Shown here piece after piece: positions 9,361-62,107 of a DNA stretch of 64,000 bases. Position numbers and translations under genes: made by a program. Positions within the stretch are counted from its first letter, which is position 1. Each line of letters begins with the position of its first letter. Source of the DNA: an uncultured bacterium. Its GTDB lineage: Bacteria; Krumholzibacteriota; Krumholzibacteriia; JACNKJ01. The stretch covers positions 1,792,001 to 1,856,000 of the forward strand of contig CAVOFT010000001.1 of assembly GCA_963695095.1 (NCBI GenBank), read 5' to 3'. Below the pieces are notes generated by a model that did no database searches, was not told the origin of the DNA, and worked only from the letters and a program-made list of their open reading frames with translations.

Positions 9361-9538
9361 CAGCATTTGCGGCCCTCCGCGGGTTCCAGGGCAAGATCCT
9401 TGCGTTTAGTTCGAATTGTCTCATTCTGGTGTCAACACTCGGCTTCCGGGCCGCCTTTCGACTTGACAGTGCGCGGAGACGGACCCTAGATGGTGAGCGG
9501 GCGCCTGCCGCCCTCTCCTGGTCGCCTGCGAGCGGGGA

Positions 9539-23714: not shown

Positions 23715-24635
23715 CTAGCGCCCCGCCTGATCCCTGAGGAGGGTGACGCGCAGCAGGCCGTCGCGCCCCGGGGGATTGCCCTTGAAGCTGAGTCCCTCGT
23801 ACGCGATCTGGCCGTCGGCGAGCAGCAGGCGTTCCTCCAGGCGATCCGCGAGCCACTGGGCCCGCGCCGCCGCGAGCGGGGCGCTCTCCGCGTAGGACTC
23901 CACTCGGATCGCGCGGTCGGGCGCGCTCAGGATCTCCCGCAGCAGGCGGTCGATGCGCCCCTCCGCCTCGGGCAAGGGGCGGGCTTCCCGGGTGATGAAG
24001 AACTCCGCGGCCGCCGCCTCCAGGCGGAGGTTCTTGCCCTCGCTGTAGGCCAGGGTGGGCAGGACGAAGGTGCTGCCCGCGTACTGGTAGCGGTTGGTGC
24101 CCGAATCCTCGATCGTGAAGAGGAAGGAATAGGGGAAGCCGGGCCGGAGCATCTCGCCGTGATCGCTGCGGCCGTCCCAGGCGAGTTCCAGCGGCGGCAT
24201 CCCGTCGCCGTCCAGGCGCCGGAAGCTCTCGCCGCGATAGTCCGTGATCTCCAGCCGCCAGTGCCTCACGTCCGCGCCGACCGCAAATCCCGTGCGGAAG
24301 GTGGTCACCGGCGCCCGCGTCACCGCGCGGCTGCCGAAGTCGGGGATCACCGGGCAGTCGACGCGCTCGCTGTCGAAGAGATAGGGGTTGAAGCTCTCCA
24401 GGGGCGCGTACTCGAAGAGGAGCTGCTCCACCTCGGTGCTGCCATCGTCGAGTTCCTCCGGCCGGGGGTGGAAGTCCAGCTCGGTCTTTTCCACCTGGAG
24501 GCGGAACTCGTTATCGTCGACGACCTCGAGTTGCTGGATGGCCGCGGGCGGCGGCGCGGACTCAGCCGCTGCGGCGGCCAGGGGCGTCGCCAGCAATCCC
24601 AGGACGGAGACGATCAGCGCGAGGGGCGATTTCAT
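23715..24635 (-). CDS. Secreted protein with FlgD-Ig-like domain and degenerate OmpA-C-like domain
   Basis: Signal peptide; WRLEITD...LAWDGRSDHG; C-terminal F....A.P...IRVESYAE..LAAARA. Confidence 0.7.
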   Translation of the reverse strand: MKSPLALIVSVLGLLATPLAAAAAESAPPPAAIQQLEVVDDNEFRLQVEKTELDFHPRPEELDDGSTEVEQLLFEYAPLESFNPYLFDSERVDCPVIPDFGSRAVTRAPVTTFRTGFAVGADVRHWRLEITDYRGESFRRLDGDGMPPLELAWDGRSDHGEMLRPGFPYSFLFTIEDSGTNRYQYAGSTFVLPTLAYSEGKNLRLEAAAAEFFITREARPLPEAEGRIDRLLREILSAPDRAIRVESYAESAPLAAARAQWLADRLEERLLLADGQIAYEGLSFKGNPPGRDGLLRVTLLRDQAGR

Positions 24636-24652
24636 GTGGGCCTCCACGGGCA

Positions 24653-25993
24653 TCAGCGCAGTCGGAAGACGATGGTGAGCACTCCCCACTGCTCGGCGGA
24701 GTTGCCCGCCGGCAGGGGACTGAAACGCCAGTCGGCCAGGCAGCGCTTGGCCGCCTCGTCGAGCACCTGGTGGGGGCTCGCCTGCTCGACGAACACCTTC
24801 TTGATGCTGCCGTCCGGCAGCACGGTGAAGTAGATGCTGACCGTGCCCAGCCAGCCCTGTTGCTTCGCGGCGGCCGGATACGCGGGCGCCCGCGAGCTCA
24901 GGATGTCGCGGCCCAGGATGGGCCCGCTCAGGGTCATCGAGACGCCCTTGTCGGCCTGCCCGCCGGCGGCGGCCTCGGCGGGCGCAGCCGCCGCGGCGCT
25001 CGTCGGCCGCTCGGGCTCGATACTGCGGGCGATGGCCGGGGCCGGACGCGGCTCGCTCTCGAGGCGCTTCGCCAGCGGGCCGGCGCGAGTGACTGCATCC
25101 GCACCGCCCCGGGAGATGAGGCCCGTGCCGCGGCCGGGCTCGGCGGCCCCGGCCCCGGCCAGCGCGTCGTCGCCCAGGCCGCTCGCGCCGGAGCCGACCT
25201 GCAGCGAGGCGAGGGCGGTCAGGCGCTCCCGACTGCCGTCCTTGGCGACCAGATTGCCGCGCGGCAGCTCGCCGCGATAGGCCTCCTTGCCCTCCGCGAG
25301 CGTGCCACCCACGAGATCGGGGTGGCCGCCGGCCAGTCCGCCCGCGGGCACGGCCAGCGTGAGGGCAGCGCCGGCGAGCGCGGGCCCCTCGCCGCCCTCG
25401 ACCTTGAAGAGGGCCTCATCGCCCAGGCGGGCGCTGCGCCCGACGAGCATCTGCCCCTTGAGGTTCACGTCCTCGGCGCCCATCATCACCCGGCGGGGGT
25501 TGTCGGTGAGGCCGGCGCTGAGCAGCAGCTGATCCTCGCGCAGGCGGGGGACGGCGGGGCCGTCGGTCCGGCGCTGGCGAGACTTGAGGGCCTGCGCCGC
25601 GAAGGGGTTCGTGGCATCGCGCGGCGCCGGCAGCGGCGGCGGCACCGCGCTCAGCGCGGGCGTCGCCGGCTGGGCCTGCGGCTCGCCCTTGGCGAAGAGC
25701 GAGCCCTCGAGCGCCGGCGGCTCCTGCTTGGCGGGTATCGCGTCGGGAGGGGCCAGCTTCTCGGGCGCGAGGCTGACCTGCTTCGCGACGGCTTCGCCGT
25801 AGCGGGCCTCGATGTAGGAGATCTCCGTCAGCTTCCGCGTCTCCGCGAGCTGCCGGGCGCCGAGGCCGCCCAGCAGGAGGAAGAGCAGCAGGTGCAGCCC
25901 CGCCGACAGGACGAAGCCGAGATTGGTGTCGGAAGCCAGGCGACGGCGCCAGGGGCGCGGCGGCCGGCCCTTCTGCGGGGGGTTCAGGCTCAC
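24653..25993 (-). CDS. TonB family energy transducer
   Basis: TM with SAGLH (S-x3-H) motif; long linker; PAYPAAAKQQGWLGTV..F.V..DG...LDEAA....WRF. Confidence 0.88.
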   Translation of the reverse strand: MSLNPPQKGRPPRPWRRRLASDTNLGFVLSAGLHLLLFLLLGGLGARQLAETRKLTEISYIEARYGEAVAKQVSLAPEKLAPPDAIPAKQEPPALEGSLFAKGEPQAQPATPALSAVPPPLPAPRDATNPFAAQALKSRQRRTDGPAVPRLREDQLLLSAGLTDNPRRVMMGAEDVNLKGQMLVGRSARLGDEALFKVEGGEGPALAGAALTLAVPAGGLAGGHPDLVGGTLAEGKEAYRGELPRGNLVAKDGSRERLTALASLQVGSGASGLGDDALAGAGAAEPGRGTGLISRGGADAVTRAGPLAKRLESEPRPAPAIARSIEPERPTSAAAAAPAEAAAGGQADKGVSMTLSGPILGRDILSSRAPAYPAAAKQQGWLGTVSIYFTVLPDGSIKKVFVEQASPHQVLDEAAKRCLADWRFSPLPAGNSAEQWGVLTIVFRLR

Positions 25994-26406
25994 GGCGTGG
26001 CCTCTCCCTTCTTCTGTTCGGTGGCCAGGGCGATGCGCGGCGCCCCGGCGCGCTGCACGGCGGCCAGCAGGAGCTCGATGTCGCCGTAGGCAATGCCCTC
26101 ATCGGCCTTGATCACGGCCATGCTGCTCGGCTGGCGGGCGAAGATGGCGGACAGCCTCGGTTCGAGCTGATCCAGCGTGACCGGCATCTCGTCCACGGCC
26201 AGGCTGCCGTCCCGGGCGAAGACCACCTCCACCTTGTCCTGGTCCTCGGTTTCGGTGGCGGCGGCGTCGGGCAGATCGACATCCGTCTCGCTGCGGTTGA
26301 GGAAGGGGCTGATCACCATCAGGGTCAGGACCACGACCAGGGCGACGTTGATGATCGGCACGACGTCCGCCTTCGGCGCGGGCAGACCGGAGGATTGTCT
26401 GCGCAT
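25990..26406 (-). CDS. ExbD/TolR family protein, non-canonical (Asp to Asn in the TM)
   Basis: ADVVPIINVALVVVLTLMV TM, VDLP, IKAD..I.YG. Confidence 0.88.
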   Translation of the reverse strand: MRRQSSGLPAPKADVVPIINVALVVVLTLMVISPFLNRSETDVDLPDAAATETEDQDKVEVVFARDGSLAVDEMPVTLDQLEPRLSAIFARQPSSMAVIKADEGIAYGDIELLLAAVQRAGAPRIALATEQKKGEATP

Positions 26407-26408
26407 GG

Positions 26409-26837
26409 CTACTGCTCCTTCGCGCGACCCAGCAGGGCGAGGCCTTCGGCCCCGTTCTGCTTGAGGATGTCCATCACCGTGACCACGTTGCCCAGGCGCA
26501 CCTCCGGCTCGGGCACGATGATCACGGTGCGATCGTTGCTGGACGCCAGACGCGTGCGTGTCAGGTCCGCCAGCTCCGTGAGATTCACCAGCCGTCCATC
26601 GACCTGGATGCTCTCGGCCGTGACCAGCACGGTGAGCTTGTCGACGGCGCTGTTCTCCTTGCGGGTGACTTCCGACGTCGTCGCCGCCCGCGTGGCGTTG
26701 ACCTGGATGCCCGACCACAGCAGGGCCGGCATGGTCATCAGAAAGACGACAATCAGCGTGGTCACCACATCCGCGAGGGGAACGATGTTCGCCTCGGCGA
26801 TGCTGTCCAGTCGAGCGCGGCGCGTGCGGGCCATCAC
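26409..26837 (-). CDS. ExbD/TolR family protein, canonical
   Basis: EANIVPLADVVTTLIVVFLM TM; VTVMDILK..G. Confidence 0.88.
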   Translation of the reverse strand: MMARTRRARLDSIAEANIVPLADVVTTLIVVFLMTMPALLWSGIQVNATRAATTSEVTRKENSAVDKLTVLVTAESIQVDGRLVNLTELADLTRTRLASSNDRTVIIVPEPEVRLGNVVTVMDILKQNGAEGLALLGRAKEQ

Positions 26838-27460
26838 TCCACCGGCCGGCTGTTGACGTACTTCCAGAACTCGTTGCGCGCGTCGTCAGCGTCCATGGCC
26901 CGCACGCGGATGCTGCGCGTGAAGGCGTTGTAGCAGATGGTGGCGATGACGGCGACCACGATGCCGGCCGCTGTCGTCAGCAGGGCCTCGGAGACGCCCA
27001 TCGCGATCACCGACGAGCCGCCGCTGCCCGTGACGGCGATGTCGCGGAAGGCGCGGATGATGCCGATCACCGTGCCGAAGAGCCCGAGCAGGGGCGCGAT
27101 GTTCGCCAGCGTGCCCAGCACGACGAGGTGCTTCTCCAGCTTGAGCTGCTCCTTCTCGATCTCCGTGTCCATGATCTGGTCGACCTGCTCACGGCCGGCG
27201 CTGAGATTCTCCACCGCGGCGCTCATGATGCGGCCGAGCGAGCCGCCGCCCTTCTCGCAGTAGCGCGCGAACTCGCCGAGCTGGTTGCGCGAAAGGTGCT
27301 TGCGCATGGCGGCCTTGAATTCGCGGGTCGAGTAGCGCGTGCGCAGAAAGTAGATCCAGCGCTCGAAGGCAAAAGTGACCACGACGATGCTGCAGGCGAT
27401 CAGCACCAGCATCGTCTGGCTCTTGAAGAACATCGCCATCATGTTGTTGTCCGAGAGCAT
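26834..27460 (-). CDS. ExbB/TolQ/MotA family proton channel
   Basis: APLLGLFGTVIGII.AF, GVSEALLTTAAG; AAGGAG RBS. Confidence 0.93.
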   Translation of the reverse strand: MLSDNNMMAMFFKSQTMLVLIACSIVVVTFAFERWIYFLRTRYSTREFKAAMRKHLSRNQLGEFARYCEKGGGSLGRIMSAAVENLSAGREQVDQIMDTEIEKEQLKLEKHLVVLGTLANIAPLLGLFGTVIGIIRAFRDIAVTGSGGSSVIAMGVSEALLTTAAGIVVAVIATICYNAFTRSIRVRAMDADDARNEFWKYVNSRPVE

Positions 27461-27487
27461 TCCCACTCCTTTGCGGATCCGTCCGGG

Positions 27488-30484
27488 CTACTGGGCGCCG
27501 GCCTGTCGCAGTTCCTGGTCCAGGGTTGCCATGCGCTCGCGGGCGAGCGCCGCCCACTCGGCATTGTGAGGATTGTCGGCGATGCGCCGGTAAGCCTGGC
27601 GTGCAGAAGCCAGGTCGCCTGCCTCCTCTTGCAGCGAGGCGATGCGCGCCAGCGCGGCGATTCCGTGATCGTCGGCAAGCGCATTGGGAGCGGCCGCCGC
27701 GGCCTGGTAGGCCGCGAGGGCATCGTCGGCGCGGCCGAGCTTGCTCAGGCACTCGCCGCGCTGGTAGTGGATCTGCACGATGGGAACGCCGGGCTGCCCG
27801 GCGAGCGCCTCGTAGCGGGCGAGGGCCGCCGCCGCGTCGCCGGTCTCGTTCTGGCAGACGTCGGCCATCTGCAACTCGAGTTCCAGCCGGCGCTCATGCT
27901 GGGGGTAGCGCTTCAGGAAGTCCTCGCCGTTGCTGAGGAAGGTGGGCCACTGCTCGAGCTGCCGGTAGCAAAGGCCGGCGTTGAAGAGCCCGAGCGGAGC
28001 AAGTTCGTCCGTTGCGTACTGATCGGCGAGGATCAGGAAGTGCCCCGCGGCCTCGCTGTACTTCTCCTGGGCGTAGAGGATGTGCCCCGCCTTGAGCAGG
28101 GCCGCCGTGGCGAGCGGGCGATCGGGGTAGGTGGCCGTGAAATTCTCGAAGCTGACGCGGGCGCCTTCCAGGTCGCCGAGGGCGAAGCGGCACTCGGCGA
28201 GGTAGAAGAGCGCGTCCGGGGCCACGTCCGCGCTGGGGTAGCGCAGCGTGATGGCCTCCAGGCGCTGGGCCGCTTCCGCGTAGCGCTGGGCCCGGAAGGC
28301 CTCGCTGCCTTGCTCCCAGAGCACCTCGGCCGCGAAGGTGGCATTCGGATTCTGCTCGACGTAGGTCAGCATGTCGCGGCCGCTGCGCAGGAAACAGGCC
28401 TGGATGGCCTGCTGGGCATCGAGCGTGCGCAGGCCATCGGGGTGGGCCTCGACGTAGGCGCTGAAGAGCGCGGCGGCAGCATCGTAGTCGCCCTCGTTGT
28501 AGACGCAATTGGCCTGGTTGAAGAGCGCCTCCTCGGCGGGGGCGCTGTCCGGGAAACGCGCGGCGAGGTCGGTGTAGATCGCCCGCGCCGCGGCGTAGGC
28601 TTGCAGGCCGAACAGGGTGTCGGCGAGCTTGGCGAGCACGGCCGGCATGTCGGCGTAGTCCGGGTGCTCAGCGAGCACGCGCCGCCAGCGCGCCACCGCG
28701 TCTTCGTAGTACTGCAGGGCGTAGAGGCACTCGCCGGACTGGTAGAGGGCCTGGGCGCGCTCCTCGCCGGCGGGCGCGGTGGCGAGGAACTCGTCGAAGA
28801 GGCCAAGCGCCTTGCGGTGCTCCTTGCGATTGAAGTACATGCCCGCGGCCGCCAGGACATTGGCGGGATTCTCGCTGGCCTCGTTGCTGATGACGAGCAG
28901 GTAGCGCTCCTGTTCGAGGGCCGCTTTCTGGTCGTCGCCGAGCTGGCTGTAGCTCGCGGTCATGCCCTGGAGCGCGTAAGGCGCGGCGTCACTGAAGGGA
29001 TAGTCGTTCAGCACGAGCCGATAGAGATCGGCGGCATCCTGGTAGAGCCCAAGCGTGAAGTAGCTCTCCGCGATCAGATAGTAGGTGCGGGCGCGCCAGG
29101 GATTGGGCGTCGGCAGGAGCTTGCGCGCCAGGTGGCGATAGTTGGTGACGATGCGATTGTAGTCATCATCGCCGTAGAAGGACCAGGTGAGCAGGAAGAG
29201 CGCCTTCTCGCCGAGGTCGCTGCCGGTATCCTTGTCCAGGAGCTTGCCCAGTAGGTCGCGAGCGTGCTTGACGTCGTCCAGCTCCAGGTAATCGAGCGAC
29301 TGCATCAGCTGCACGCGCCCCGCCAGGGGATCGCCGGGATAGCGATCCATGAACATGTGCCCGAGGCCGATGCTCTGGTTCCAGTTCTCGTTGCGGGCGT
29401 AGTGGTGCATCATCCGGAAGAGGGCGCTGCTGCTGGTCAGGCCATCGGGGAAGGCCGTCAGGATGGCGCTGAAGGCATGATCGGCCTCGCTCTCGCGCCC
29501 GAGCTGGAAGTAGGCCAGCCCCTGCAGCATGAACACCTTCTCCCGCAGGGGGTCCGCCGGCGGCGCGTCGGCGAGCAGATCGCTCAGGCTGTCCAGGGCG
29601 CGCAGGTAGTCCTCGTCCCGGAACAGGATGGTGGCCAGCTTGAAGCGGGCCGCCAGCGCGTGGCGGCTGTCCGGGTGGGCGGCCAGCACCTCCTCGAAAG
29701 CGCTGCGGGCAAGCTGACGCTGGCCGGAGCGCAGGAAGCTCTCGGCGATGGCGAAGCGCACGTCCTCGGCCAGTGCCGTCGTCGGGTAGCGCACCAGGAG
29801 CTGGCGGTACTGCTGGATGGCCTTGAGGTACTGGCCCTCCTCGGCCAGAGTGCGCGCCGTGTAGTAGCGGGCACGCTCGGACTCCACCTGCTGGAACTGG
29901 GTGCGGGCGGTGGCCAGCTCGCCGCGCTGATAATGGTAGACGCCGTAGGCGAAGCGCAGCTCGGCGCGCTCGCCGTAGCGCGGCCAGGCCGCCACCAGGC
30001 GGTCGGCCGTCGTCTTGAAGTCCTCCCACTCGCCGAGCGCTACCCAGGTTTGCGCCAGGGCGAGCTGGGCGTCGCGCGCGAGGTAGCCGCCGTCGGCGCC
30101 CGCCACGGCCGCGAAGTGCTCGGCGGCGCGAGGGAAGTCGACGAGCGCGAAGGCGCACTGCCCGCGGCGCAGCAGGGCGGCGGCGCGCAGGAGCCCCCGG
30201 GTGCCGCTGGCACCGGGCACGCGGGCGAATTCGGCGTCGGCGGCCTTGAGGTCACCCAGCCGCCAGAGGCACTCGGCCGCCATGTAGCGCGCGCGCCCGC
30301 TGTGCTCGGAGTTCGCGAACTTCTGATCGACCGCGCGATAGGCATCCACGGCCGCCATGCTCGGACCGTCCCGGCGCAGCAGCAGATCGGCAGCATCGAT
30401 GAGCGCGCCGGCCGTCTCCTGTGCGCGGGCCGGGAAGGCCGCGATCGACAGGATGAGCAGGAGCGGCGGGAATCCTTTCCACAT
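27488..30484 (-). CDS. Large periplasmic tetratricopeptide-repeat protein (998 aa)
   Basis: Signal peptide; many TPR units ending in (Y/F)P.S..A..A.(F/Y). Confidence 0.9.
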   Translation of the reverse strand: MWKGFPPLLLILSIAAFPARAQETAGALIDAADLLLRRDGPSMAAVDAYRAVDQKFANSEHSGRARYMAAECLWRLGDLKAADAEFARVPGASGTRGLLRAAALLRRGQCAFALVDFPRAAEHFAAVAGADGGYLARDAQLALAQTWVALGEWEDFKTTADRLVAAWPRYGERAELRFAYGVYHYQRGELATARTQFQQVESERARYYTARTLAEEGQYLKAIQQYRQLLVRYPTTALAEDVRFAIAESFLRSGQRQLARSAFEEVLAAHPDSRHALAARFKLATILFRDEDYLRALDSLSDLLADAPPADPLREKVFMLQGLAYFQLGRESEADHAFSAILTAFPDGLTSSSALFRMMHHYARNENWNQSIGLGHMFMDRYPGDPLAGRVQLMQSLDYLELDDVKHARDLLGKLLDKDTGSDLGEKALFLLTWSFYGDDDYNRIVTNYRHLARKLLPTPNPWRARTYYLIAESYFTLGLYQDAADLYRLVLNDYPFSDAAPYALQGMTASYSQLGDDQKAALEQERYLLVISNEASENPANVLAAAGMYFNRKEHRKALGLFDEFLATAPAGEERAQALYQSGECLYALQYYEDAVARWRRVLAEHPDYADMPAVLAKLADTLFGLQAYAAARAIYTDLAARFPDSAPAEEALFNQANCVYNEGDYDAAAALFSAYVEAHPDGLRTLDAQQAIQACFLRSGRDMLTYVEQNPNATFAAEVLWEQGSEAFRAQRYAEAAQRLEAITLRYPSADVAPDALFYLAECRFALGDLEGARVSFENFTATYPDRPLATAALLKAGHILYAQEKYSEAAGHFLILADQYATDELAPLGLFNAGLCYRQLEQWPTFLSNGEDFLKRYPQHERRLELELQMADVCQNETGDAAAALARYEALAGQPGVPIVQIHYQRGECLSKLGRADDALAAYQAAAAAPNALADDHGIAALARIASLQEEAGDLASARQAYRRIADNPHNAEWAALARERMATLDQELRQAGAQ

Positions 30485-30485
30485 C

Positions 30486-31724
30486 TCAGTTCACCTCGAG
30501 CTGGACGGGGGTCTTCAGCGTCGGATCGTAGTCGCGGATCTCGATCGCAATTTCCTGCGACCAGGGGTCGCCGTACTCGTCGAGCACGACCACGACGACG
30601 CGGTAGTTGCCCGTGGAGACGAGGCGGCCGTGGTCATCGCGGCCATCCCATGCGTAGGTCGCCGGCGGCTCCTTGCTGCCGCGCGCGCTGTGCACCGCGT
30701 TGCCGTCACCGTCGAAGATGGCGAGCTCCCAGCCGCGAGCCTTGCCGCGGAACTGGCTCTTGAGCTCCATCTCCACCTGGTTGCGCTCGCCGCTGGGCGA
30801 GAAGCGCGCGGTGTCGCTGCTGAGGCTGATCCCCGTCGCGACCCCGAAGCGCCAGGTGAAGCTGAGCCGGTGCGAGAGCCCGATCTGGGTATCCGCGACG
30901 GCGTAGTCGAGTTGCCAGGGGCCGTTGCGGTAGCCGCCGCCGGCGCCGTAGCTGCTGCGCTGGGTATCCCAGCCGCTGCGCAGGGCGAAGCCGCCGGGCA
31001 CCCAGAGCTCCCCGCCGGCCTGGAGGCCCAGCGGGGCATCGCCGACGCGGACGACGTCCAGGGTGGCCAGCATGCGGCCGCCCCGCAGGTGCAGCGCGCC
31101 GCCGGCGCGCAGGGTGAGGGGGAAGGTCTCCGCCGTCTTGTAGAGCGTGAGCGTCGGCGGCAGCAGGTTCTGCATCATGAGCCCGAAGCTGAAGAGCCGG
31201 TGCGGCCGGTTGAAGGCCGCCAGATCGAGGCCGGAGGCGCTGGCGCTGAAGCCGGCCAGGCTCTGATTCACGTTGCGGTAACTCGCGGCCAGGCTGAGAG
31301 CGCCGAAGCGGCGGGCGAAGCTGACCTGGATGGAGTTCTGCTGTTCGTCGAAGGTCTCGTCGCTGTCGGCGAGCAGGCTGCTGCGCTCGAAACCGCCCGA
31401 GCTGAGCAGTGCGCCGGCGAGGCCGAGGGTGCCGTAAGCGCCCAGGGGCTGGACGAGGCCCACGTACTCGTAGCGCGTGCCGGTGAGCAGCTCGGCGTGG
31501 AAGAAGAGCAGCTCGGTGCCGCGCACCTGCTCGAGTCCGGCGGGATTGGCGAAGAGGGCGCTGGCGTCGTCGGCCAGACCGGTGGCCGCGCCGCCCATCG
31601 CCAGGCCGCGCGCGCTGGCGGCGAAGCGCAGGAATGAACCGGGCAAGCCGCCCGCCGCCTCCTGGGCGAAGCCCGGACGGGCCGCAAGGAGCAAGAGCGT
31701 GCTGATCAGGATGCGATTTCTCAT
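30486..31724 (-). CDS. PorV/PorQ-like beta-barrel fused to a C-terminal FlgD-Ig domain
   Basis: SARGLAMGGA..GLADDASALFANPAGL; LDYA...LSHRLSF.W.F; then FSPSG...WDGRDDHGRLVSTGNY. Confidence 0.85.
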   Translation of the reverse strand: MRNRILISTLLLLAARPGFAQEAAGGLPGSFLRFAASARGLAMGGAATGLADDASALFANPAGLEQVRGTELLFFHAELLTGTRYEYVGLVQPLGAYGTLGLAGALLSSGGFERSSLLADSDETFDEQQNSIQVSFARRFGALSLAASYRNVNQSLAGFSASASGLDLAAFNRPHRLFSFGLMMQNLLPPTLTLYKTAETFPLTLRAGGALHLRGGRMLATLDVVRVGDAPLGLQAGGELWVPGGFALRSGWDTQRSSYGAGGGYRNGPWQLDYAVADTQIGLSHRLSFTWRFGVATGISLSSDTARFSPSGERNQVEMELKSQFRGKARGWELAIFDGDGNAVHSARGSKEPPATYAWDGRDDHGRLVSTGNYRVVVVVLDEYGDPWSQEIAIEIRDYDPTLKTPVQLEVN

Positions 31725-31741
31725 GATGCTTACCTCGCCGG

Positions 31742-34700
31742 CTACTTGATCACCGCGATTTTGCGCTGCAGCAGTTGGCCGCCCGTGCGAACGGTGCACA
31801 GGTAGCCGCCATTGCCGACCACCTCACCCCGGCCGTTCCTGCCGTCCCAGGGCACCTGGTAGGTCTGGCCGGCGCCGGTCGCCAGCTCGTGGGTCCAGAC
31901 CAGATTGCCGAAATGGTCGTGGATGCGCAGAACGGCGGTGCCGTCGGCGCGGGCGATGAAGAGGATGACGGTTTCCTCGCGGCCGGCCTGGAAGGGGTTG
32001 GGCCGATTGCTCAGCGGCCGCTCCGGCGCGAGCGCCGTGCCGAACACGAGCGTCACGTGCTGCACCGCCTCCCGATTGCCGTGGATGTCCGTGGCGTAGA
32101 AGCTGAGCGTATGTTCCCCGTACTCGCTGACGCCGAGATCGGCGAAGCGAAGCAAATCGGTGTAGACGCGCGCGGGCTGCGCCTCGCCCCCGAGATCGAC
32201 GTCCCAGTAGGTCTGGTCGACGCCGATCTCGCTGGAGCTGCTCAGGCGCAGCTCCGTCTCGGGGAGCAGGAGCAGGCCCTGGTCGGTGGCGGCGCTGCTG
32301 CCCAGCACGCTGAGCGTGGTGATCGGCGGTCCGATGACGGCGATTTCCACCACGCGCGTCGGCAGCGCGCGCACGGCCACCTGCACGATGATGTCCGCGC
32401 GGCCGCCCTCGAGCACGCGGACGCTGTTGCCGGCCGTGCCCAGGTTGCCGGTGAGGACGCTGTCGGCCGCGAGCTGGCCGTCACCAGCGATCATCGTGAA
32501 GGCCACGGCCTCGGCGAGGACGCGGTTGCCGAAGAGGTCGCTGACCGTGGCGGTCAAGGTGGCCGCCTGGCCCGGTTCGAGGGACAGCGGGTTCGCGGCA
32601 ATGGTCAGGCTGGCCGGAGGACCGGCGTGCACCTGGATCGGGTCGGAGAAGACCACCAGCCCCTGATCGTCGGTGATCTGCAGGTAGATGGCCTCGGCCG
32701 CGGTATAGGACTCGGTGATCGTGACCAGGCCCTGGGCGGTGGTGCCGCCGCTGAGCGCGAGGTTGCCCGCCCCCGGCTGGCCGGTGTTGTGGTTGACGGC
32801 CGCGATCGTGAAGCTGCGATCGTCGCTGGTCACGCGCTGGCCGGTGGACGTGTCCACCAGCTCGATGGTGACGGGGAAGGTGGCCGGCGGGCCGACCGTG
32901 GCGCTGACCGGCGTCGTCACCCGGTAGGCGACCGACTCCGGCACCATGTGGATGATGCCGCTGGTGCTACTGCGGCCGCGCCCGTCGCTGACGCGAATGA
33001 CGATGTCCTCGACGACCGGGTAGGTCTGACCGACGATGGAGAGCTCGCCGGCGGCGAGCACGCCGGCCGTGACGCCGAGCGCGCCCAGCGCCGGGCCCTG
33101 ATTGGGCGCCAGGGCGGTCAGCGTGACTTCCTCGTTGGCAACCGTGATCAGGGTGCCGTCATTGCGCACCAGGCGCACCGTCATCGGCCAGCTGGCCGGG
33201 GGGCCGGCCTGGGCCTGAGCGGGCACGCTGATCTCGTAGTGGGCCTCGCCGACCGGGATGTCCACGGCGTGCGCGAGTACGACCGGATTCGCCAGGTCCT
33301 CGACGAAGAGGGTGACGTTGCCCTGGTTGTGCAGGATCAGCTCGTAGTCGCCGACGCCGCCGATGAGGGCCGTGCCGTTGTTGGTCGGGTTGCCGGCCGT
33401 CACGCTGCCCTCGGAACTGCTCAGCGTGATCGTGCCCGCGTTGAAGCCGTCGTTGAGGTTCCAGTACTGGTCCGTGGCCCGCACCTGCACCATGAAGGGC
33501 ACCTCGGCCTGCTGCAGGCGCGGCGTGCCCGTCTTGCCGGTGGGGGAGCTGGCGCCCGGCTGCGGCGTTTCGCCGGGGGCGATGAGCTGCAAGCGCTTGT
33601 AGCCGTCGGGGCGCATCACGATGCTGTTGGAGGTGCCCACCACGCCGCGCGCATCGTGAACGCGCAGGTAGATGTGGCCGGCGCCGGTGTAGGTCTGGTT
33701 GAAGTTGGCGACGCCGTCGGCGAGCACGCCGCTGCCGACGCTCCAGGCGCCGACGCCGAGCTGGCCAGTCTGGCCCGAGTAGACGTCCACGCTGAAGATC
33801 GTGTCCTGGCTGGCGACGACGAGGCCCGTGCCGAGGTCGAGCAGGCGCACCGTGACGGGGAAGTCTGCGGGTCCGCCCACCGTGGCCGTGTCGGGCACGG
33901 TCAGCGCGTAGCCGAGGCCGCCGGGCTGCATGGTGAGGATGGGCGAGTAGCCGACGCGCCCGTAGTCGTCCATCACGCGCAGGATGATGGACTCGACCCG
34001 GTCGTACTGCTGGCCGTTGATGACGCGCACGCCCGCGGCGAGCGTCTCGGCGGTGATGGCGAGATTGCCGGCCGCCACGCCGAAGTTGGGGTAGAGGGCC
34101 GCGATCGTGAAGCTCTGATTCGCGTCCGGGGCGGGGTCGCCCGTCACCGGATCGATCATCTCGACGATCATCTGGAAGCCCGGGTAGCCCGTGTGCGGCG
34201 AGAGATCGGGCAGGGTGAGCTGGAACTCGTAGCCGGGATTGACCGGGATCGACACCGTCTGGCCGGGCGGGGCCGGGTTGGCCGCGTCCCAGACGCTGAG
34301 GTCCACCTGGCCCTCGCTGTCCAGATAGATCTGGAACGTGCGGCGGCCGTTGACGAAGGGCGCGCCCATGTCGCTAGGGTTGTCGGCGCCCACCGAGTTG
34401 TCCGTGGCGCTGAAGGTGAGGGCGCCGCCGTTCGTGGCCGCGGCCAGGTTCCAGAACTGGTCCACGGCCCGTACGGTGACCGGGAAGGGGCTGCGACTGC
34501 GCTGGGTATCGGGCACGCCCTCCTTGCCGGTGGCCAGGAAGGCCTCGATGCCCGCGCGCACTTCCTCGCCGGGGGCGAGGAGCTGCAGGCGCTTGTAGCC
34601 ATCGGCGGCCACGCTGAAGATGGCGCTGTTGCCGATGAGGGCGTGGTCGTCCACGACGTGCAGGTAGACGTTCTCGGCGCGGCTGTAGGACTCATTGAAG

Positions 34701-37700
34701 ATCGCGTAGCCGGCCTCGAGGCTGGCCTGCGTGATGGCGGTCATGCCGAGGCCGGGAGCGCCCGTGGCGGCGGCCCAGATGGCGATCGTCAGCTCCCGGT
34801 CGGCGTCGATGCGGGTGCCGGTGTCCACGTCGCGCAGCTCCACCGAGACCGGGAAGCTGGCCGGCGGACCGGCGACGGGATTCGCACCCTGGCCCAGCGC
34901 GACGCGGTACTCCATGCCGTTCGTCAGCATGTGGATCGGCTGGCTGTAGGCCAGGCGCCCGGCGTTGTCGCTGACGCGAATGATGATGTCTTCCACGGTG
35001 CCGTAGGCCTGCGCGGGCAGGTTGCCGACGCCGCCGTTCAGCGTGACCTGGCCCACCCAGAGCACGCCGCTGGCCGGATCGAGGTTGCTCTTGAAGGCGG
35101 TGAGCTGCACGGTGTGGTTCGCGGCGCCCTCGGGATTGCCGAGGGAGTCGACCAGGCTCACCGCCATCGCGAAGGTCTGCGGCGGGCCGACGCGCGCGCT
35201 GTCGGGCGCCTGGATCAGGTACTGCGAACCCTGCTGCAGGTTGATGGTCACCGCCTGGGGCAGGATGTCGAGGTTGTCGAGGGGATTGGCCTCGACGGAG
35301 ACCGACCCGCTAGCGATGAGGAAGATCGGGAAGCTGATGCTGCCGCCGGCCAGATTCTGGCCCTGGTTGGGCGGGTTGATGGCGTCGAGGGCGCCGTCGC
35401 TGCTCGTGAGCCGGACGTGCTCGTCGTTGTCCGGCACGAGGTTCCAGTACTCGTCGACGCTGCGCACGATGACGGGGAACTGCAGGCTCGTCGTCTGCAG
35501 GGCGGGCGTGCCGAGCTTGCCGTCGGACTCGAAGCCGCCGGGGTTGGGCGTCTCGCCCGGTGCCACGATCTGCAGGCGCACGAAGGGGCCGGGCTCGATG
35601 GCGACGACGGAAGTGTCGGTCCGGGCCGGCCAGGTGACATCACTCACCACCAGCGGCTGATCGCCGGCGCTGCGGAAGTAGAGCTGGGCGCTGGCGCTGC
35701 CCGCGGGCGGGAGCACCAGCGGATTGGCGCTGATCATCTGGCTGTAGCCGACACTGCTCAGGACCACGGTCGGCTGCGTCGCCACCTGGTTGAAGTAGCC
35801 GTCGACGGCCAGGATGGCGGCCGTGATCGTCTCGCCGGCCGTGTGCGGGTAGGGCACGCCGGCCTTGCCGATGCCGATCCCCGGCGTGTGCAGCTCGCCG
35901 GGCAGGAGCAGGAGCAGGTCGCTGTAGGCGCCGGGCAGGACGTCGAAGGGATTGCTCTGGCCGGTGCGGGCGTAGGCGGATTCGGTGGCCGTCAGCACCA
36001 CGTCCTGGCCGGCCTTGTAGACGCGCAAGCTGCCGCGCCAGACGCCGTGCTCGCTGCCGGGCCAGGTGCCGCCGTCGGCGAAATCGACGCTGGCCGGTAG
36101 CAGCACGTCGGCGCCGTGGCTGACCGTGAGCAGCGCCGTCCCCTGGTAGGTGGGGATGTGGTTGCCGAACTGGTCGCGGGCGATGATCGTCAGGTCGTTG
36201 AGCGCCTGTCCGGCCACGAAATCGGGGATGGGCGAGAGCGGATCGTTCGCGCTCGGGTTGCTCAGCGCGTTGATGCCGAGCGTGAAATGGTCGACGACGC
36301 CGGCCTGGAGGGGCACGGCCGTGAAAGCACTCTGGCTGCCGTCGAGGTCGCGCGCCTGTACGGTCTGGAAGTTGGGGTCGGCCAGGGTGCGCAGGGTGAC
36401 CGTGTAGTTGCCGGTGGGCGTGGACTGCTGCTGGCCGCTGGCGGGCAAGGTGGCCGCCGCGTCCGAGCTGCTGAACTGGAGGCGCACCGGGAAGGTGGGG
36501 TCGTTGGTCGCGACCGGGTTCCAGAAACCGTCCGTCGCCACGACGCCGACCGCGAAGGGCACGCCGGCGTCCTGGAAGTTGGGCGTGCCCAGCTTGCCGT
36601 CCGCCTCGATGCTGTCGAAGATGCCCGGGGCGAGCGTCTCGCCGGGGGCCACCACGGCCATGCGCGCATAAGCCGCCGGCGATACCTGGATGGCGCTGCT
36701 CGTGCCGCTGACGCCCTGGGAACTGGTGATCGTCAGGCTGCGGCTCCCGCGCGTGCGGAAGATGACGCTGATGGTCGTGGCGTTGGTGACCGTGAAGTTG
36801 TTGTCGGCGTAGGCGGGGAGCTGGAAGTAGCCGTCGCCGCTGCTCGCGCCCACGAAGTGATTGCCGCCCACCATGTTGAAGTAGCGATCCACGGGTCGCA
36901 CGACGACCGGGGTCACGGTGAATCCGGCCGTCGTCGGATTCGGCGTGCCCAGGTTGCCCGTGAAGCCGGGCGTGCTCAGGCCCGGCGCGTAGGTCTGCCC
37001 GGGCAGGGTGACGAGAAAGCTCTCCAGCGGCCCCGGGTCCACCTGGAAGTAGCCGCTGGTCGAGGCGGCGCTGCCGCCGCTGTCGCAGACCAGCGCGCAG
37101 GAGAAGAAGCGTCGCGTGACCTGGATGTCGGTGTCCAGCTCGCCCGCCGTGAAGACGTTCGTGCTGCTGAGCAGGTAGTCCTCGCTCTCCTCGGCGCCGT
37201 AGCGCACGCGCAGGGATACCGCGCCGTTGAAGGGGAAGCGATTCTCATAGAAGTCGCGCGCGGTGATGCGCACGTCGAAGGGCTGGGTGGTCACCTGCAC
37301 GTCCAGGGTGTCCCAGATCGCGTAGTTGAACTCGAAGTGGTCGAGGCTCTGCGGCTGGACCGTCAGGTAGCTGTTGCTGACATCCGTGATGGAGCCGCTG
37401 GCCGTGGCGCTAACGCTGTGCGTAGCGGCGGTGATCAGCCGGAAGACCTGATCGGCGAGCATGTTGTCGCTCATCAGGCCGCCCGGGGGCAGCTGCACCG
37501 CGGCGTGGCCGTCCGAACTGGCGTAGCTGACCGTGAAGGGCAGGCCGGGGTCCGTCTCCCGCACCGGATTCCACCAGGGGTCCACCGCGTAGACCGTGCC
37601 GCTGAAGGGGATGCCGGCGAGCTGCGCCGTGGGGCTGCCGCTCTTGCCGGGCGGCACGCCGGGAGTGAGCGTTTCGCCCGGGAGCACGATCACGATGCCC

Positions 37701-38452
37701 TCCAGCGCGGCCGGCCAGAGCGGGGTCACCGCGGCCGTGCCCTGGGGGTAGGCGCTCTGGCCCGGGTAGATGCGGCCCCCCGTCGCCGTCAAGGTGTTCG
37801 ACTGGGTGAGCTGGTGCGTGCCCAGGAACTGCACGGGCACCACGGCCTGGCCGTGGTCGAAGAGGCTGCCGCTGATGAGCTGGCTGGGACCGGGTCCCAG
37901 GTTGCCCACCGCCGCGCGCAGGGTGACGTCGTCGGCGAAGTTGGCGATGGCGACGCCGTAGGTGTCCACGGCGGTGAGCGTGATGGGGATGTCCTGGCCC
38001 ACCCACTTGTCGCCGCCCGGAACGCCGATGTTGAAGTGGTCGACGAAGGGGTAGCAGTTGATCCACTCGTAGCCCTTGGGCGCGGTGATGTCGTCGGCCG
38101 CGCGGGCCTCGAGCTGGATGCCGCTGCCGGGGGCATTGAAGACGACGTTGTCGAACTGGACCTCGCCGTTGACGATGTAGCGCGCCGGGGGCAGCGTGGC
38201 ATTGTGCGTCGCGTAGAGCTCGAAGAGCAGGGCGTTGACGCTGGTGTCCACCGTGCCGCCGGCGTTCATGGCGCGCACGCGGACGCTGAAGCCCTGTCCG
38301 ATGGTGACCGCCGGGTTGCCGTCGACCATCACGGCATCGACGACGGTGAGTTCCGTGTAGCTCCAGGCAGCGGCGCCGCCCGCGGCCAGGGCCGTCATCA
38401 GGAAGGCCAGGAGCGCGGCCTGCACGGGGCGAGCCGGGATGAACTGCGGCAT
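31742..38452 (-). CDS. Giant secreted Ig-like repeat protein (~2236 aa) with a T9SS/FlgD-like C-terminal domain; putative adhesin
   Basis: Signal peptide; seven PG[EQ]...G.P....G....V...D..[WF]N repeats; six GPP..FP.... repeats; C-terminus NRPNPF...WDGRN..G..V.NGGY...RKIAVIK. Confidence 0.88.
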   Translation of the reverse strand: MPQFIPARPVQAALLAFLMTALAAGGAAAWSYTELTVVDAVMVDGNPAVTIGQGFSVRVRAMNAGGTVDTSVNALLFELYATHNATLPPARYIVNGEVQFDNVVFNAPGSGIQLEARAADDITAPKGYEWINCYPFVDHFNIGVPGGDKWVGQDIPITLTAVDTYGVAIANFADDVTLRAAVGNLGPGPSQLISGSLFDHGQAVVPVQFLGTHQLTQSNTLTATGGRIYPGQSAYPQGTAAVTPLWPAALEGIVIVLPGETLTPGVPPGKSGSPTAQLAGIPFSGTVYAVDPWWNPVRETDPGLPFTVSYASSDGHAAVQLPPGGLMSDNMLADQVFRLITAATHSVSATASGSITDVSNSYLTVQPQSLDHFEFNYAIWDTLDVQVTTQPFDVRITARDFYENRFPFNGAVSLRVRYGAEESEDYLLSSTNVFTAGELDTDIQVTRRFFSCALVCDSGGSAASTSGYFQVDPGPLESFLVTLPGQTYAPGLSTPGFTGNLGTPNPTTAGFTVTPVVVRPVDRYFNMVGGNHFVGASSGDGYFQLPAYADNNFTVTNATTISVIFRTRGSRSLTITSSQGVSGTSSAIQVSPAAYARMAVVAPGETLAPGIFDSIEADGKLGTPNFQDAGVPFAVGVVATDGFWNPVATNDPTFPVRLQFSSSDAAATLPASGQQQSTPTGNYTVTLRTLADPNFQTVQARDLDGSQSAFTAVPLQAGVVDHFTLGINALSNPSANDPLSPIPDFVAGQALNDLTIIARDQFGNHIPTYQGTALLTVSHGADVLLPASVDFADGGTWPGSEHGVWRGSLRVYKAGQDVVLTATESAYARTGQSNPFDVLPGAYSDLLLLLPGELHTPGIGIGKAGVPYPHTAGETITAAILAVDGYFNQVATQPTVVLSSVGYSQMISANPLVLPPAGSASAQLYFRSAGDQPLVVSDVTWPARTDTSVVAIEPGPFVRLQIVAPGETPNPGGFESDGKLGTPALQTTSLQFPVIVRSVDEYWNLVPDNDEHVRLTSSDGALDAINPPNQGQNLAGGSISFPIFLIASGSVSVEANPLDNLDILPQAVTINLQQGSQYLIQAPDSARVGPPQTFAMAVSLVDSLGNPEGAANHTVQLTAFKSNLDPASGVLWVGQVTLNGGVGNLPAQAYGTVEDIIIRVSDNAGRLAYSQPIHMLTNGMEYRVALGQGANPVAGPPASFPVSVELRDVDTGTRIDADRELTIAIWAAATGAPGLGMTAITQASLEAGYAIFNESYSRAENVYLHVVDDHALIGNSAIFSVAADGYKRLQLLAPGEEVRAGIEAFLATGKEGVPDTQRSRSPFPVTVRAVDQFWNLAAATNGGALTFSATDNSVGADNPSDMGAPFVNGRRTFQIYLDSEGQVDLSVWDAANPAPPGQTVSIPVNPGYEFQLTLPDLSPHTGYPGFQMIVEMIDPVTGDPAPDANQSFTIAALYPNFGVAAGNLAITAETLAAGVRVINGQQYDRVESIILRVMDDYGRVGYSPILTMQPGGLGYALTVPDTATVGGPADFPVTVRLLDLGTGLVVASQDTIFSVDVYSGQTGQLGVGAWSVGSGVLADGVANFNQTYTGAGHIYLRVHDARGVVGTSNSIVMRPDGYKRLQLIAPGETPQPGASSPTGKTGTPRLQQAEVPFMVQVRATDQYWNLNDGFNAGTITLSSSEGSVTAGNPTNNGTALIGGVGDYELILHNQGNVTLFVEDLANPVVLAHAVDIPVGEAHYEISVPAQAQAGPPASWPMTVRLVRNDGTLITVANEEVTLTALAPNQGPALGALGVTAGVLAAGELSIVGQTYPVVEDIVIRVSDGRGRSSTSGIIHMVPESVAYRVTTPVSATVGPPATFPVTIELVDTSTGQRVTSDDRSFTIAAVNHNTGQPGAGNLALSGGTTAQGLVTITESYTAAEAIYLQITDDQGLVVFSDPIQVHAGPPASLTIAANPLSLEPGQAATLTATVSDLFGNRVLAEAVAFTMIAGDGQLAADSVLTGNLGTAGNSVRVLEGGRADIIVQVAVRALPTRVVEIAVIGPPITTLSVLGSSAATDQGLLLLPETELRLSSSSEIGVDQTYWDVDLGGEAQPARVYTDLLRFADLGVSEYGEHTLSFYATDIHGNREAVQHVTLVFGTALAPERPLSNRPNPFQAGREETVILFIARADGTAVLRIHDHFGNLVWTHELATGAGQTYQVPWDGRNGRGEVVGNGGYLCTVRTGGQLLQRKIAVIK

Positions 38453-38579
38453 CGAAGGCCTCCACAGGGCGATGCGGTTGGAACCTCGCGCATCCGGGTC
38501 GGCGAGGAGTGACCACCTGCTTCCAGCGCTGCCCGCTGGCGGCGACGAGGCCGCGGAACGGGCGCTCGACCGGCTGGAC

Positions 38580-38595
38580 TGCAACAGGTATGCCA
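38580..38595 (-). promoter_or_regulatory. sigma54 promoter of the giant-protein/Ton operon
   Basis: Minus strand TGGCAT-ACCTG-TTGCA, near consensus, ~130 nt upstream of the start. Confidence 0.75.
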
Positions 38596-51283: not shown

Positions 51284-51424
51284 GGCAGGCTGAGGCAGCC
51301 GGCGGCAGGAAGGGGAAGAACTTGCCCCTCGCGGGCGTTCACTCTTGCCCACCGCTGTCCGCTCCCGATCCCTAAGCTCCCCAGGAACAAGGCCCTGTCG
51401 CCGCCGTCGGCGGCCGGAGGCGCG

Positions 51425-51440
51425 TGGCACGCGCCTTGAT
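51425..51440 (+). promoter_or_regulatory. sigma54 promoter of the flgF operon
   Basis: TGGCAC-GCGCC-TTGAT. Confidence 0.65.
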
Positions 51441-51507
51441 GTGCCACTGCCGGACGCTGCCCGACGCCCGGGAGAAGCGGCGGTCGCGTCCAGGGAGAAG
51501 CGGTTCC

Positions 51508-52230
51508 ATGATCAAGGCGCTCGCGAGCAGCGGGCAGGCGATGCAGGTCCAGCAGCGCCGCCACGAGCTGATCGCCAATAATCTCGCCAACGCCAACACG
51601 CCCGGCTTCCAGAAGCTGGTCAGTCGCGTCGAGCTGGGCGCGCCCAGCGGGGTCGGCCCGGCGGCGGCGACGAAGGGCCGCGCCCTCAGCGTCGGCATCT
51701 TCACCTCGACGGCGCAGGGGCCGCTCGAAAGCACCGGCAATCCCCTGGATGTCGCGCTGATGGGGGAGGGCTACTTCCTCATCGAGACGCCGGACGGGCC
51801 GCGCTTGAGCCGCGACGGCGCCTTCTCATTGAGCGCCGAAGGCGAGCTGCTGCATGGCTCCGGCTATCCGGTCCTGGCCGATGGCAGCGCCCTGCGCATC
51901 GAGGGCATCCCCAGCATCCTGCCCGACGGCACCGTCATGGACGGCAGCCGCGCCAGCGGCCGCCTCAGCGTCGTACGCCCGGTGGCCGGCACGGCGCTCT
52001 TGCGCCAGGGCGACAACCTGCTCGAGGCCCCGGGCGGCGTCGAGGAGGTGCCCGGCGAAGAGGTCACGGTGCAGGCGGGCCGCCGCGAGGGCTCGAATGT
52101 CGAACCGATCGAGGAGATGGTGGCGATGATCCGCGCCTTCCGCAGCTACGAGATGGCGCAGAAGGCGGCCCAGGCCGCAGACGACTTGCTGCGCGTGGCC
52201 GTCGAGCGGGTCGGGGTGCTGCGCGCCTAG
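51508..52230 (+). CDS. flgF: Flagellar basal-body rod protein FlgF
   Basis: ANNLANANTPGF, TGNPLDVAL.G.G.F, RDG.F, EGSNV. Confidence 0.9.
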   Translation: MIKALASSGQAMQVQQRRHELIANNLANANTPGFQKLVSRVELGAPSGVGPAAATKGRALSVGIFTSTAQGPLESTGNPLDVALMGEGYFLIETPDGPRLSRDGAFSLSAEGELLHGSGYPVLADGSALRIEGIPSILPDGTVMDGSRASGRLSVVRPVAGTALLRQGDNLLEAPGGVEEVPGEEVTVQAGRREGSNVEPIEEMVAMIRAFRSYEMAQKAAQAADDLLRVAVERVGVLRA

Positions 52231-52309
52231 GTCCGCGAGCGGCGCGTGAAGCGCCGATCGGCCACCGCCAAACCGGGCGCCGCGGCGCTCAGAGCAGGGA
52301 GAAGCAACC

Positions 52310-53092: not shown

Positions 53093-53099
53093 GCCGGCG

Positions 53100-54622: not shown

Positions 54623-54625
54623 GAG

Positions 54626-55741: not shown

Positions 55742-55752
55742 GAGGTCCGCTC

Positions 55753-56665: not shown

Positions 56666-56674
56666 AGGAGGACC

Positions 56675-58066: not shown

Positions 58067-58075
58067 GAGGCAGCC

Positions 58076-59593: not shown

Positions 59594-59610
59594 GAAAGGA
59601 GCAACAAGCC

Positions 59611-60117: not shown

Positions 60118-60138
60118 GCACAAGCGGAAGGAGCCACT

Positions 60139-60408: not shown

Positions 60409-60471
60409 GGGCCCCAGCGGCGCGACGGGGCCCCAGGCGGCCCCATCGGGGGCGGGCGCGGTAAAAAGGGC

Positions 60472-60498
60472 TCAAGTGCTACCGCGTGATGCCGATGA
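60472..60498 (+). promoter_or_regulatory. sigma28 promoter of flagellin 1
   Basis: TCAA-N15-GCCGATGA. Confidence 0.8.
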
Positions 60499-62073: not shown

Positions 62074-62107
62074 GCCCGCTCGCGAGCGCCGCGCGTTTCC
62101 ATTCGCT

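Follow-up and report, generated by a model that had tools for sequence, protein, structure and literature searches.

Gene content and promoter of the eight-gene operon

The window analysed here is a 64,000-nucleotide (nt) stretch (C1:1792001-1856000, approximately 70% G+C) of a Krumholzibacteriota genome of 3.64 Mb, which was assembled in two contigs and rated 93.5% complete. Its minus strand carried eight co-oriented, tightly packed open reading frames (ORFs) between window positions 23715 and 38452. They encoded a giant surface protein with a C-terminal domain of the kind used in type IX secretion systems (T9SS), a PorV/PorQ-like outer-membrane barrel, a tetratricopeptide repeat (TPR) protein, an ExbB/TolQ-type subunit, two ExbD/TolR paralogs, a TonB-type transducer and an eighth protein, hereafter the last protein (Table 1). 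From the giant gene to the last gene, the intergenic gaps were 17, 1, 21, -4, 2, 0 and 17 nt. Starts were refined for the giant gene (38452), the barrel gene (31724), the second ExbD gene (26406) and the last gene (24635).

Table 1. Position and main characteristics of the operon genes and of the upstream promoter motif (window coordinates)
Feature	Position	Strand	Characteristics
Sigma54-type -24/-12 motif, TGGCAT-N5-TTGCA	38580..38595	-	approximately 130 nt 5' of the ATG of the giant gene
Giant surface protein, 2236 amino acids (aa)	31742..38452	-	signal peptide, immunoglobulin (Ig)-like modules, C-terminal T9SS-type domain
PorV/PorQ-like outer-membrane barrel, 412 aa	30486..31724	-	PorV_fam and C-terminal FlgD_ig
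Periplasmic TPR protein, 998 aa	27488..30484	-	TPR families
ExbB/TolQ-type proton channel subunit	26834..27466	-	MotA_ExbB
ExbD/TolR paralog 1 (ExbD1)	26409..26837	-	ExbD; transmembrane Asp kept (PLADV)
ExbD/TolR paralog 2 (ExbD2)	25990..26406	-	ExbD; Asn at the transmembrane Asp position (PIINV)
TonB-type transducer, 446 aa	24653..25993	-	N-terminal SxxxH membrane helix, linker of approximately 330 aa, TonB_C
Last (eighth) protein, periplasmic, 306 aa	23715..24635	-	signal peptide, FlgD_ig-like sandwich (111-190), OmpA-like fold (195-300)

The promoter motif (TGGCATACCTGTTGCA) was the sole match in the window to the pattern TGGCAY-N5-TTGCW, for which 0.08 matches were expected and at least one was obtained in 7 of 100 shuffles. 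The ATG of the giant gene was preceded by GGAGG at a distance of 7 nt, and rpoN was encoded in the genome. A similar sigma54-type motif, which agreed with the consensus at no fewer than 8 of 11 positions and retained both GG and GC, was located at -92 to -146 in approximately half of the 20 loci from relatives described below (~10/20). A stricter pattern was matched in five of these 20 loci, each time as the sole match within the 20-kb locus. The gene content and common orientation behind a sigma54-type motif, as given in a preliminary description of this DNA, were thus borne out by the ORFs, family scans and motif search. The absences that it had listed (a TonB-dependent receptor, TolB/Pal, PorL/M, PorK/N and SprA) held as well, with no match to the TonB-dependent receptor, TolB, Pal, GldK/L/M/N or SprA families among the 45 window ORFs scanned.

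Conservation and distribution

Synteny was analysed in 20 kb around the barrel ortholog of 20 genomes, which were selected for long contigs and spread and came from eight of the nine families that make up a sample of 151 genomes of the phylum; family f7 was left out since it gave no strong barrel match. In all 20 loci, a repeat protein that bore the same C-terminal domain was followed, in this order, by the barrel, TPR protein, ExbB, ExbD, ExbD, TonB and last gene, at protein identities of 25–79%. The flanking genes (trpS, etfA and a divergent upstream gene) were kept in only 2–3 of the 20 loci, all of them in the genome's own family, so that the conserved unit consists of exactly the eight genes. 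Two lineages of the operon could be distinguished by cargo size, approximately 2240 aa in this genome and nine loci versus approximately 1000 aa in 11 loci. Some genomes held both lineages, and the three second copies examined were all complete eight-gene blocks with the short cargo. The eight genes are therefore one conserved block that has been duplicated as a block.

A profile of the last gene matched in 100 of the 151 phylum genomes: in 79 of the 117 high-quality genomes, in five of the nine members of the own family and in none of the six members of family f7. Based on this distribution, the operon is accessory and patchy even within genera. In a hand comparison, the genomes positive for the last gene were those with a full-length barrel match stronger than approximately 1e-30, except for the fragmented assemblies G103, G119 and G120. 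According to a hand-compiled list, at least 72 genomes had the barrel and last gene on a single contig, with a common strand and a distance of 6–12 kb; in the rest, they were located on separate short contigs. In genus g32 (loci of the L070 and L040 type; G070:C70 and G040:C101), as judged by hand comparison, the spacing between the two genes was approximately 12 kb instead of approximately 7 kb, with an insertion within the operon.

Outside the phylum, a search with a single WOR-3 barrel (P0051) as the query yielded three full-length relatives, and the other 16 loci retrieved, from Spirochaetota and others, matched in the FlgD_ig domain only. Two of the three WOR-3 loci (Candidatus Stahlbacteria and WOR-3 UBA3073) encoded, with the order kept, a cargo, barrel, TPR protein, duplicated ExbB/ExbD, and TonB-like and last-gene-like ORFs. 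The operon is thus an accessory, self-contained eight-gene unit of Krumholzibacteriota that is also found in WOR-3. Synteny of the motor genes with the barrel and cargo, on which the preliminary description had staked its reading, was observed in the 20 loci, the three second copies and these two WOR-3 loci.

Giant surface protein and outer-membrane barrel

The giant protein contained an FlgD_ig domain at residues 2167–2222 (32.8 bits, cut-off 27), and residues 2111–2222 aligned with the C-terminal portion of the PorU model. TIGR04183, the model of the C-terminal sorting domain, gave no match to this protein at E <= 0.01. Seven copies of an Ig-like module with the signature 'APGE...D.(Y/F)WN' and a weak Big_1 match were also present.

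The barrel matched UPF0164 as well as PorV_fam (NF033709), had an FlgD_ig domain at residues 344–404, and remained below the cut-offs of the PorQ, PorV2 and PorV equivalog models. It was the weakest of seven places over the PorV_fam cut-off in the genome. The structural model (predicted local distance difference test, pLDDT, 81.6) consisted of a barrel (residues ~26–305) and a C-terminal sandwich. Its first fold matches in Foldseek were 8gl6_F (E 1e-11) and 6h3i_F (E 6e-10), the PorV chains of Flavobacterium translocon complexes, followed by FadL, TbuX and TodX. The close homologs of the barrel bear the NCBI names Candidatus Krumholzibacteriia or Krumholzibacteriota.

The uptake channels that followed PorV in this ranking are consistent with a role of the operon in nutrient import. 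The giant protein would then bind a substrate, and the FadL/PorV-like barrel would be a TonB-energised channel, analogous to the pair of a surface lipoprotein and a TonB-dependent transporter. An N-terminal stretch ahead of the first strand of the modelled barrel (residues ~26–66), at the place of the hatch in FadL, fits this explanation. So does the presence of all Ton components, namely ExbB, ExbD and a TonB that bears SxxxH and TonB_C, in a block that has no plug-type receptor. To our knowledge, however, FadL-family channels work without TonB. Furthermore, the nearest relatives of the barrel by both sequence and fold were PorV/PorQ and not FadL, the protein encoded upstream bears the T9SS C-terminal domain, which is the ligand of PorV-type barrels, and the conserved block includes neither an inner-membrane permease nor a catabolic gene. 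We thus regard import as unlikely.

TPR protein, motor and transducer

Nutrient import, maintenance of the envelope, flagella, gliding in Myxococcus and, via GldLM, type IX secretion are known to depend for their power on proton-driven 5:2 motors of the ExbB/TolQ/MotA class. The operon ExbB matched MotA_ExbB with 109 bits and was at near-equal distance from the solved structures of TolQ (66 bits) and ExbB (59 bits). The ExbD model scored 66.9 bits for ExbD1 and 73.7 bits for ExbD2, and the transducer matched TonB_C at residues 369–445 (59.5 bits). All equivalog cut-offs for motor and transducer proteins were missed, so that the operon belongs to the Ton system at the family level only. Two ExbD ORFs were present in all 20 loci of the relatives. 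ExbD1 retained the transmembrane Asp. The corresponding residue of ExbD2 was Asn in this genome and nine close loci, that is, in the long-cargo lineage, and Asp in the 11 distant loci of the short-cargo lineage. The long-cargo motor would therefore have a single protonatable ExbD. S30 and H34 of the transducer, which form the SxxxH motif in its membrane helix, were invariant in 20 of 20 sequences, and a family scan detected no FHA domain in this protein.

The genome encoded eight MotA/ExbB/TolQ loci: the studied operon, a canonical TolQ..TolA-TolB-Pal-YbgF cluster at 3.577 Mb, MotAB, the loci L020 and L019, and three others. Eight Plug-domain receptors over the cut-off were encoded elsewhere in the genome. 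An ExbB/TolQ tree of 40 rows, constructed with all such proteins of five genomes and the operon copies, split 16 operon ExbB proteins from 23 non-operon proteins (Shimodaira-Hasegawa-like approximate likelihood ratio test, SH-aLRT, 93). The TolQ of canonical Tol-Pal formed a separate, starred clade, and the operon ExbB did not group even with the ExbB adjoining a TonB-dependent-receptor-like gene. The operon motor, for which the preliminary description had considered a grouping with ordinary nutrient-uptake ExbBD, was thus placed apart from all 23 paralogs of these five genomes. At L020 (G000:C1:259500-279499), a 617-aa TPR protein was followed by ExbB, ExbD, ExbD, TonB and a 423-aa Por_Secre_tail protein; the motor order was as in the operon, and there was no barrel.

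The TPR protein had TPR families throughout and matched the tol_pal_ybgF model in eight stretches. A signal peptide was present and a lipobox was absent. Its scores were far below the cut-off for PorW/SprE (86 versus 250 bits) and for GltC (24.7 versus 450 bits). PorW/SprE, GltC and BamD were rejected as identities of this protein because the matches reflected similarity of the repeats only, stayed under the cut-offs or were made up of multiple repeat stretches.

Last protein and fusion proteins

The last protein had no Pfam or NCBIfam match and no lipobox. In a structural model built from 21 aligned orthologs, with a pLDDT near 90 for residues 110–300, an FlgD_ig-like beta-sandwich (111–190) was followed by an alpha/beta domain with an OmpA-like fold. 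Foldseek matched the latter with TagL of the type VI secretion system (4b62, E 2e-6) and also with MotB, PomB, OmpA-C and PorE-C. The designation 'FlgD/OmpA-like' in the preliminary description is therefore correct for the fold and has no counterpart at the family level. The sandwich domains of the barrel and last protein were 42% identical over 43 aa and were closer to each other than to the C-terminal domain of the giant protein. Look-alike clusters of the last gene were observed in the ESM Atlas for Elusimicrobiota and WOR-3 (scores 0.97–0.99), which we consider a lead only.

A database protein of 775 aa, P0056, combined a PorV-like barrel, an FlgD_ig domain, a second FlgD_ig domain and a canonical OmpA domain. 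Its second FlgD_ig domain matched the profile of the last gene (hhalign probability 96%). This OmpA fusion implies that the C-terminal domain of the operon barrel faces the periplasm, where it could be reached by TonB_C, the TPR protein and the last protein. Fusions of barrel and TPR (600–700 aa) occurred in many relatives. Another fusion, P0053, consisted of a barrel, TPR and a CsgG/LpoB/TolB_N-like domain, and a barrel match within an 853-aa open frame was present in the genome itself (G000:C1:3033470-3034387).

The OmpA-like fold of the last protein could complete a second, specialised Tol-Pal-like system that tethers the outer membrane and its coat of giant protein to the cell wall. The roles would be filled by a TolQ/R-like motor, for which tolQ (115 bits) and tolR were the best NCBIfam matches, a TolA-like transducer, a CpoB-like TPR protein, to which the eight YbgF/CpoB stretches correspond, and the last protein in the place of Pal. 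All Tol matches, however, were far under the equivalog cut-offs (tolQ 115 versus 221 bits, tolA_full 15.4 versus 59.45 bits), the block lacks the TolB propeller, and the last protein has neither a lipobox nor a Pfam OmpA match. The genome also encodes its canonical cluster elsewhere, with a TolQ in a separate clade. Since 51 of the 151 genomes gave no match to the operon, it does not provide an essential envelope function. Taken together, a Tol-Pal-like tether appears improbable.

Type IX secretion in the genome and the phylum

The genome encoded SprA, together with its neighbours, at C1:2434110-2438801 (532 bits). SprA was detected in 150 of the 151 phylum genomes (147 over the cut-off) and in all three WOR-3 carriers. 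PorU (438 bits, cut-off 420) adjoined the best of 11 PorV_fam matches in the genome, and approximately 45 ORFs, including the giant gene, matched the C-terminal part of the PorU model. GldL (TIGR03513) was not detected in the genome and exceeded the cut-off in none of the 151 phylum genomes; the same search gave 254 bits in a Bacteroidia genome used as a positive control. GldM (TIGR03517, PF12081) was not detected in this genome either, in a search run without a positive control. The GldK model retrieved FGE-sulfatase proteins only, with at most 84 bits (cut-off 350). These were rejected as GldK since they were below the cut-off, and the three loci scanned had no gldLMN-like gene among the neighbours covered by the scan.

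Based on SprA in 150 of the 151 genomes and all three WOR-3 carriers, the PorU-PorV pair and the PorU-type C-terminal domains, the operon is unlikely to be, by itself, a T9SS-like secretion machine, as which it was tentatively classed in the preliminary description. From that proposal of a hybrid system, the machine is retained, and secretion by the operon alone is unlikely. Given the C-terminal domain of the cargo and the SprA, PorU and PorV encoded elsewhere in the genome, the simplest route of export is the resident T9SS.

With SprA nearly universal and GldL over the cut-off nowhere, the phylum poses the question of what energises its type IX secretion. The operon motor could be the general energiser that replaces the missing GldLM/PorLM, with the giant protein as a merely neighbouring substrate. 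The distribution of SprA and GldL and the lack of a GldM match in this genome agree with this, and the TPR protein weakly resembles PorW/SprE. This explanation is disfavoured because the 51 genomes in which the operon was not found nearly all had SprA and included assemblies that were 96–100% complete. Two operon copies in some genomes argue in the same direction. A better candidate for a general T9SS-linked motor is an ExbB-ExbD-ExbD-TonB set beside a PorV-family gene, the ExbB of which was single-copy in 147 of the 151 phylum genomes. In this genome, the set is located approximately 40 kb from SprA, at L019 (G000:C1:2383000-2402999). We consider it very improbable that the operon motor is the general energiser.

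The gene order of L019 was a TonB-dependent-receptor-like protein (1016 aa), an 841-aa protein with a PorZ-like C-terminus, a PorV_fam barrel (185 bits), a GWxTD protein, an N-extended ExbB, ExbD, ExbD, TonB, TolC, an ATP-binding cassette (ABC) ATPase and a second GWxTD protein.

A proposed dedicated motor for one surface protein

We somewhat favour, as the best explanation, that the resident T9SS exports the giant protein, that the operon's own barrel holds it and that the dedicated Ton-type motor acts on this assembly. The giant protein would cross the inner membrane via Sec and the outer membrane via the resident T9SS (SprA, PorV and PorU). Its own PorV/PorQ-like barrel would then bind the C-terminal domain and hold the protein on the surface, comparable to PorQ-PorZ and SprF-SprB. 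The ExbB-ExbD1-ExbD2 motor, driven by proton flow, would pull via the TonB-type transducer at the periplasmic side of the barrel assembly. The 998-aa TPR protein may serve as a periplasmic scaffold, and TonB may act through it on the barrel, as the preliminary description had suggested. The FlgD_ig/OmpA-like last protein may partner the barrel in the periplasm or brace it against the cell wall. The force could move the adhesin, alter its exposure or release it.

Several observations weigh against this explanation. One of the three WOR-3 loci (L118, JAGMCI010000020.1) encoded a cargo, barrel and TPR protein without adjacent ExbB/ExbD/TonB genes, and the TPR gene was followed by approximately 800 bp without a long ORF. 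Together with the barrel-free set of TPR protein, ExbB, ExbD, ExbD and TonB at L020, this locus would fit a transcript that is merely shared by two units unrelated to each other, one being a T9SS cargo and its barrel and the other an ordinary Ton system plus a TPR gene. However, the whole block was kept in all 20 loci down to 25% identity, was duplicated whole and was maintained across two phyla, its ExbB lineage is private to the operon, and barrel-OmpA and barrel-TPR fusions exist. A merely shared transcript is therefore quite improbable. From the gene order, whole-block duplication, private motor lineage and fusion proteins, we infer that the eight products work together.

The other points against a motor that acts on the barrel assembly concern its parts. 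Conserved gene order shows a common function and not the nature of that function. The PorV_fam score of the barrel was marginal (91.3 bits, cut-off 90). We know of no PorV-family barrel that needs TonB, and no TonB box was identified. A contact of TonB_C with an operon protein emerged from none of the computations presented here. When the barrel (26–412), last protein (105–306) and TonB_C (352–446) were co-folded, the score for TonB_C as a partner was 0.00 compared with a mark of 0.32, which is not evidence either way. P0056 is a single sequence on a 2.4-kb contig. A search of sequencing runs listed no RNA run, and four DNA runs from one study contained only 6–8% of the sampled words. The OmpA-like domain of the last protein gave no Pfam OmpA match, and the usual peptidoglycan-binding residues were not conserved in the alignment of its orthologs; a role of this protein as a cell-wall brace is therefore uncertain.

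A broader and more speculative version, which we consider possible but doubtful, is that Ton-type motors take the place of GldLM/PorLM in Krumholzibacteriota and WOR-3 and drive outer-membrane machinery of the type IX style. The operon would be a cargo-dedicated branch, with a private ExbB-ExbD1-ExbD2-TonB motor whose pull on a PorV-like barrel serves to hand over, anchor or propel a single giant adhesin. If so, it would be a third independent way to drive a surface adhesin from the inner membrane, beside GldLM-SprB and AglRQS-Glt-CglB, and possibly a gliding or active-adhesion device.

Comparison with known systems

Pairs of a C-terminal-domain protein and its cognate PorV-like barrel are known from T9SS, with PorU-PorV, PorZ-PorQ, SprB-SprF and other PorP-like anchors as the examples in the accessible text of three articles (PMC9143113, PMC10947112, PMC10994853). 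The operon resembles these pairs in that the gene of a PorV/PorQ-family barrel adjoins that of a large surface protein whose C-terminal domain is of the T9SS type. It differs in the extra C-terminal FlgD_ig domain of the barrel and in the joining of the pair to a TPR protein, a Ton-type motor, TonB and an OmpA-fold protein. Compared with the T9SS of Bacteroidota, the genome has SprA (outside the operon and window), PorU, PorV and sorting-domain cargo, whereas GldL is not detectable in the phylum.

The motor part is most readily compared with the Agl-Glt 'core complex' of Myxococcus, which comprises aglR, aglQ, aglS, gltG, gltC, gltD and gltE and is of unknown function (Luciano et al. 2011, PMC3169522). 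In agreement with the preliminary description and with Table 1 of that article, both have one TolQ-like and two different TolR-like proteins, a TonB_C transducer and a TPR protein (approximately 1000 aa or more) that bears a signal peptide. Outer-membrane barrels that serve a surface adhesin are a further likeness. In contrast, the operon transducer lacks the FHA domain of GltG (FHA and TonB_C), the GltC model scored 24.7 versus 450 bits and the AgmX/PglI tail 17.8 versus 40 bits. The outer-membrane part is PorV-type instead of GltA/B/H/K, and the cargo bears a T9SS domain. In composition, the motor/TPR/TonB part corresponds to the Agl-Glt core complex, but it fails the orthology features tested (FHA, GltC and AgmX/PglI models).

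With the Ton system, the operon shares the ExbB, ExbD and TonB_C families and the SxxxH motif in the membrane helix of the transducer. It differs in the lack of a plug-type transporter in the block, in two ExbD paralogs, one of which is Asn-bearing here, and in an ExbB that is set apart from those of the remaining Ton-like sets in these genomes. Likenesses to Tol-Pal are the best equivalog names (tolQ/tolR), CpoB/YbgF-type repeats and the OmpA-like fold of the last protein, and the differences are the lack of TolB and of a lipoprotein Pal and scores that are all below the cut-off. Clusters of a TPR protein, a tolQ-like gene, two tolR-like genes and a vWA transducer have been reported, with unknown function, from bacteria of the Planctomycetota-Verrucomicrobiota-Chlamydiota (PVC) group in a survey of force transducers of the periplasm (Mol Biol Evol 2025, PMC12204202, accessible text). 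The head of the transducer is vWA in these clusters and TonB_C in the operon. PorV does not occur in the accessible text of this survey (PMC12204202). Full-text literature searches, with subscription journals and supplements outside their range, returned no description of the combination of motor, PorV-like barrel and giant protein.

The operon represents a Ton-type motor that is evolutionarily fixed to type IX outer-membrane parts, a PorV-like barrel and a sorting-domain cargo, in phyla with SprA and no detectable GldL. A physical coupling of these parts would represent a new output for TonB-type transducers and would bear on how type IX translocons outside Bacteroidota are energised. That question becomes testable since a single small unit encodes the cargo, barrel and motor.

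Other features of the window

A run of flagellar genes was located at 51376-63867 on the plus strand and consisted of FlgF/G-like rods, FlgA, FlgH, FlgI, FlgN, FlgK, an FlgL-like gene and two flagellins. This bacterium probably bears flagella. Two more large ORFs on the plus strand had Ig-like matches, namely Big_1 in a 1268-aa frame (3885-7688) and Big_13 in a 602-aa frame (9497-11302).

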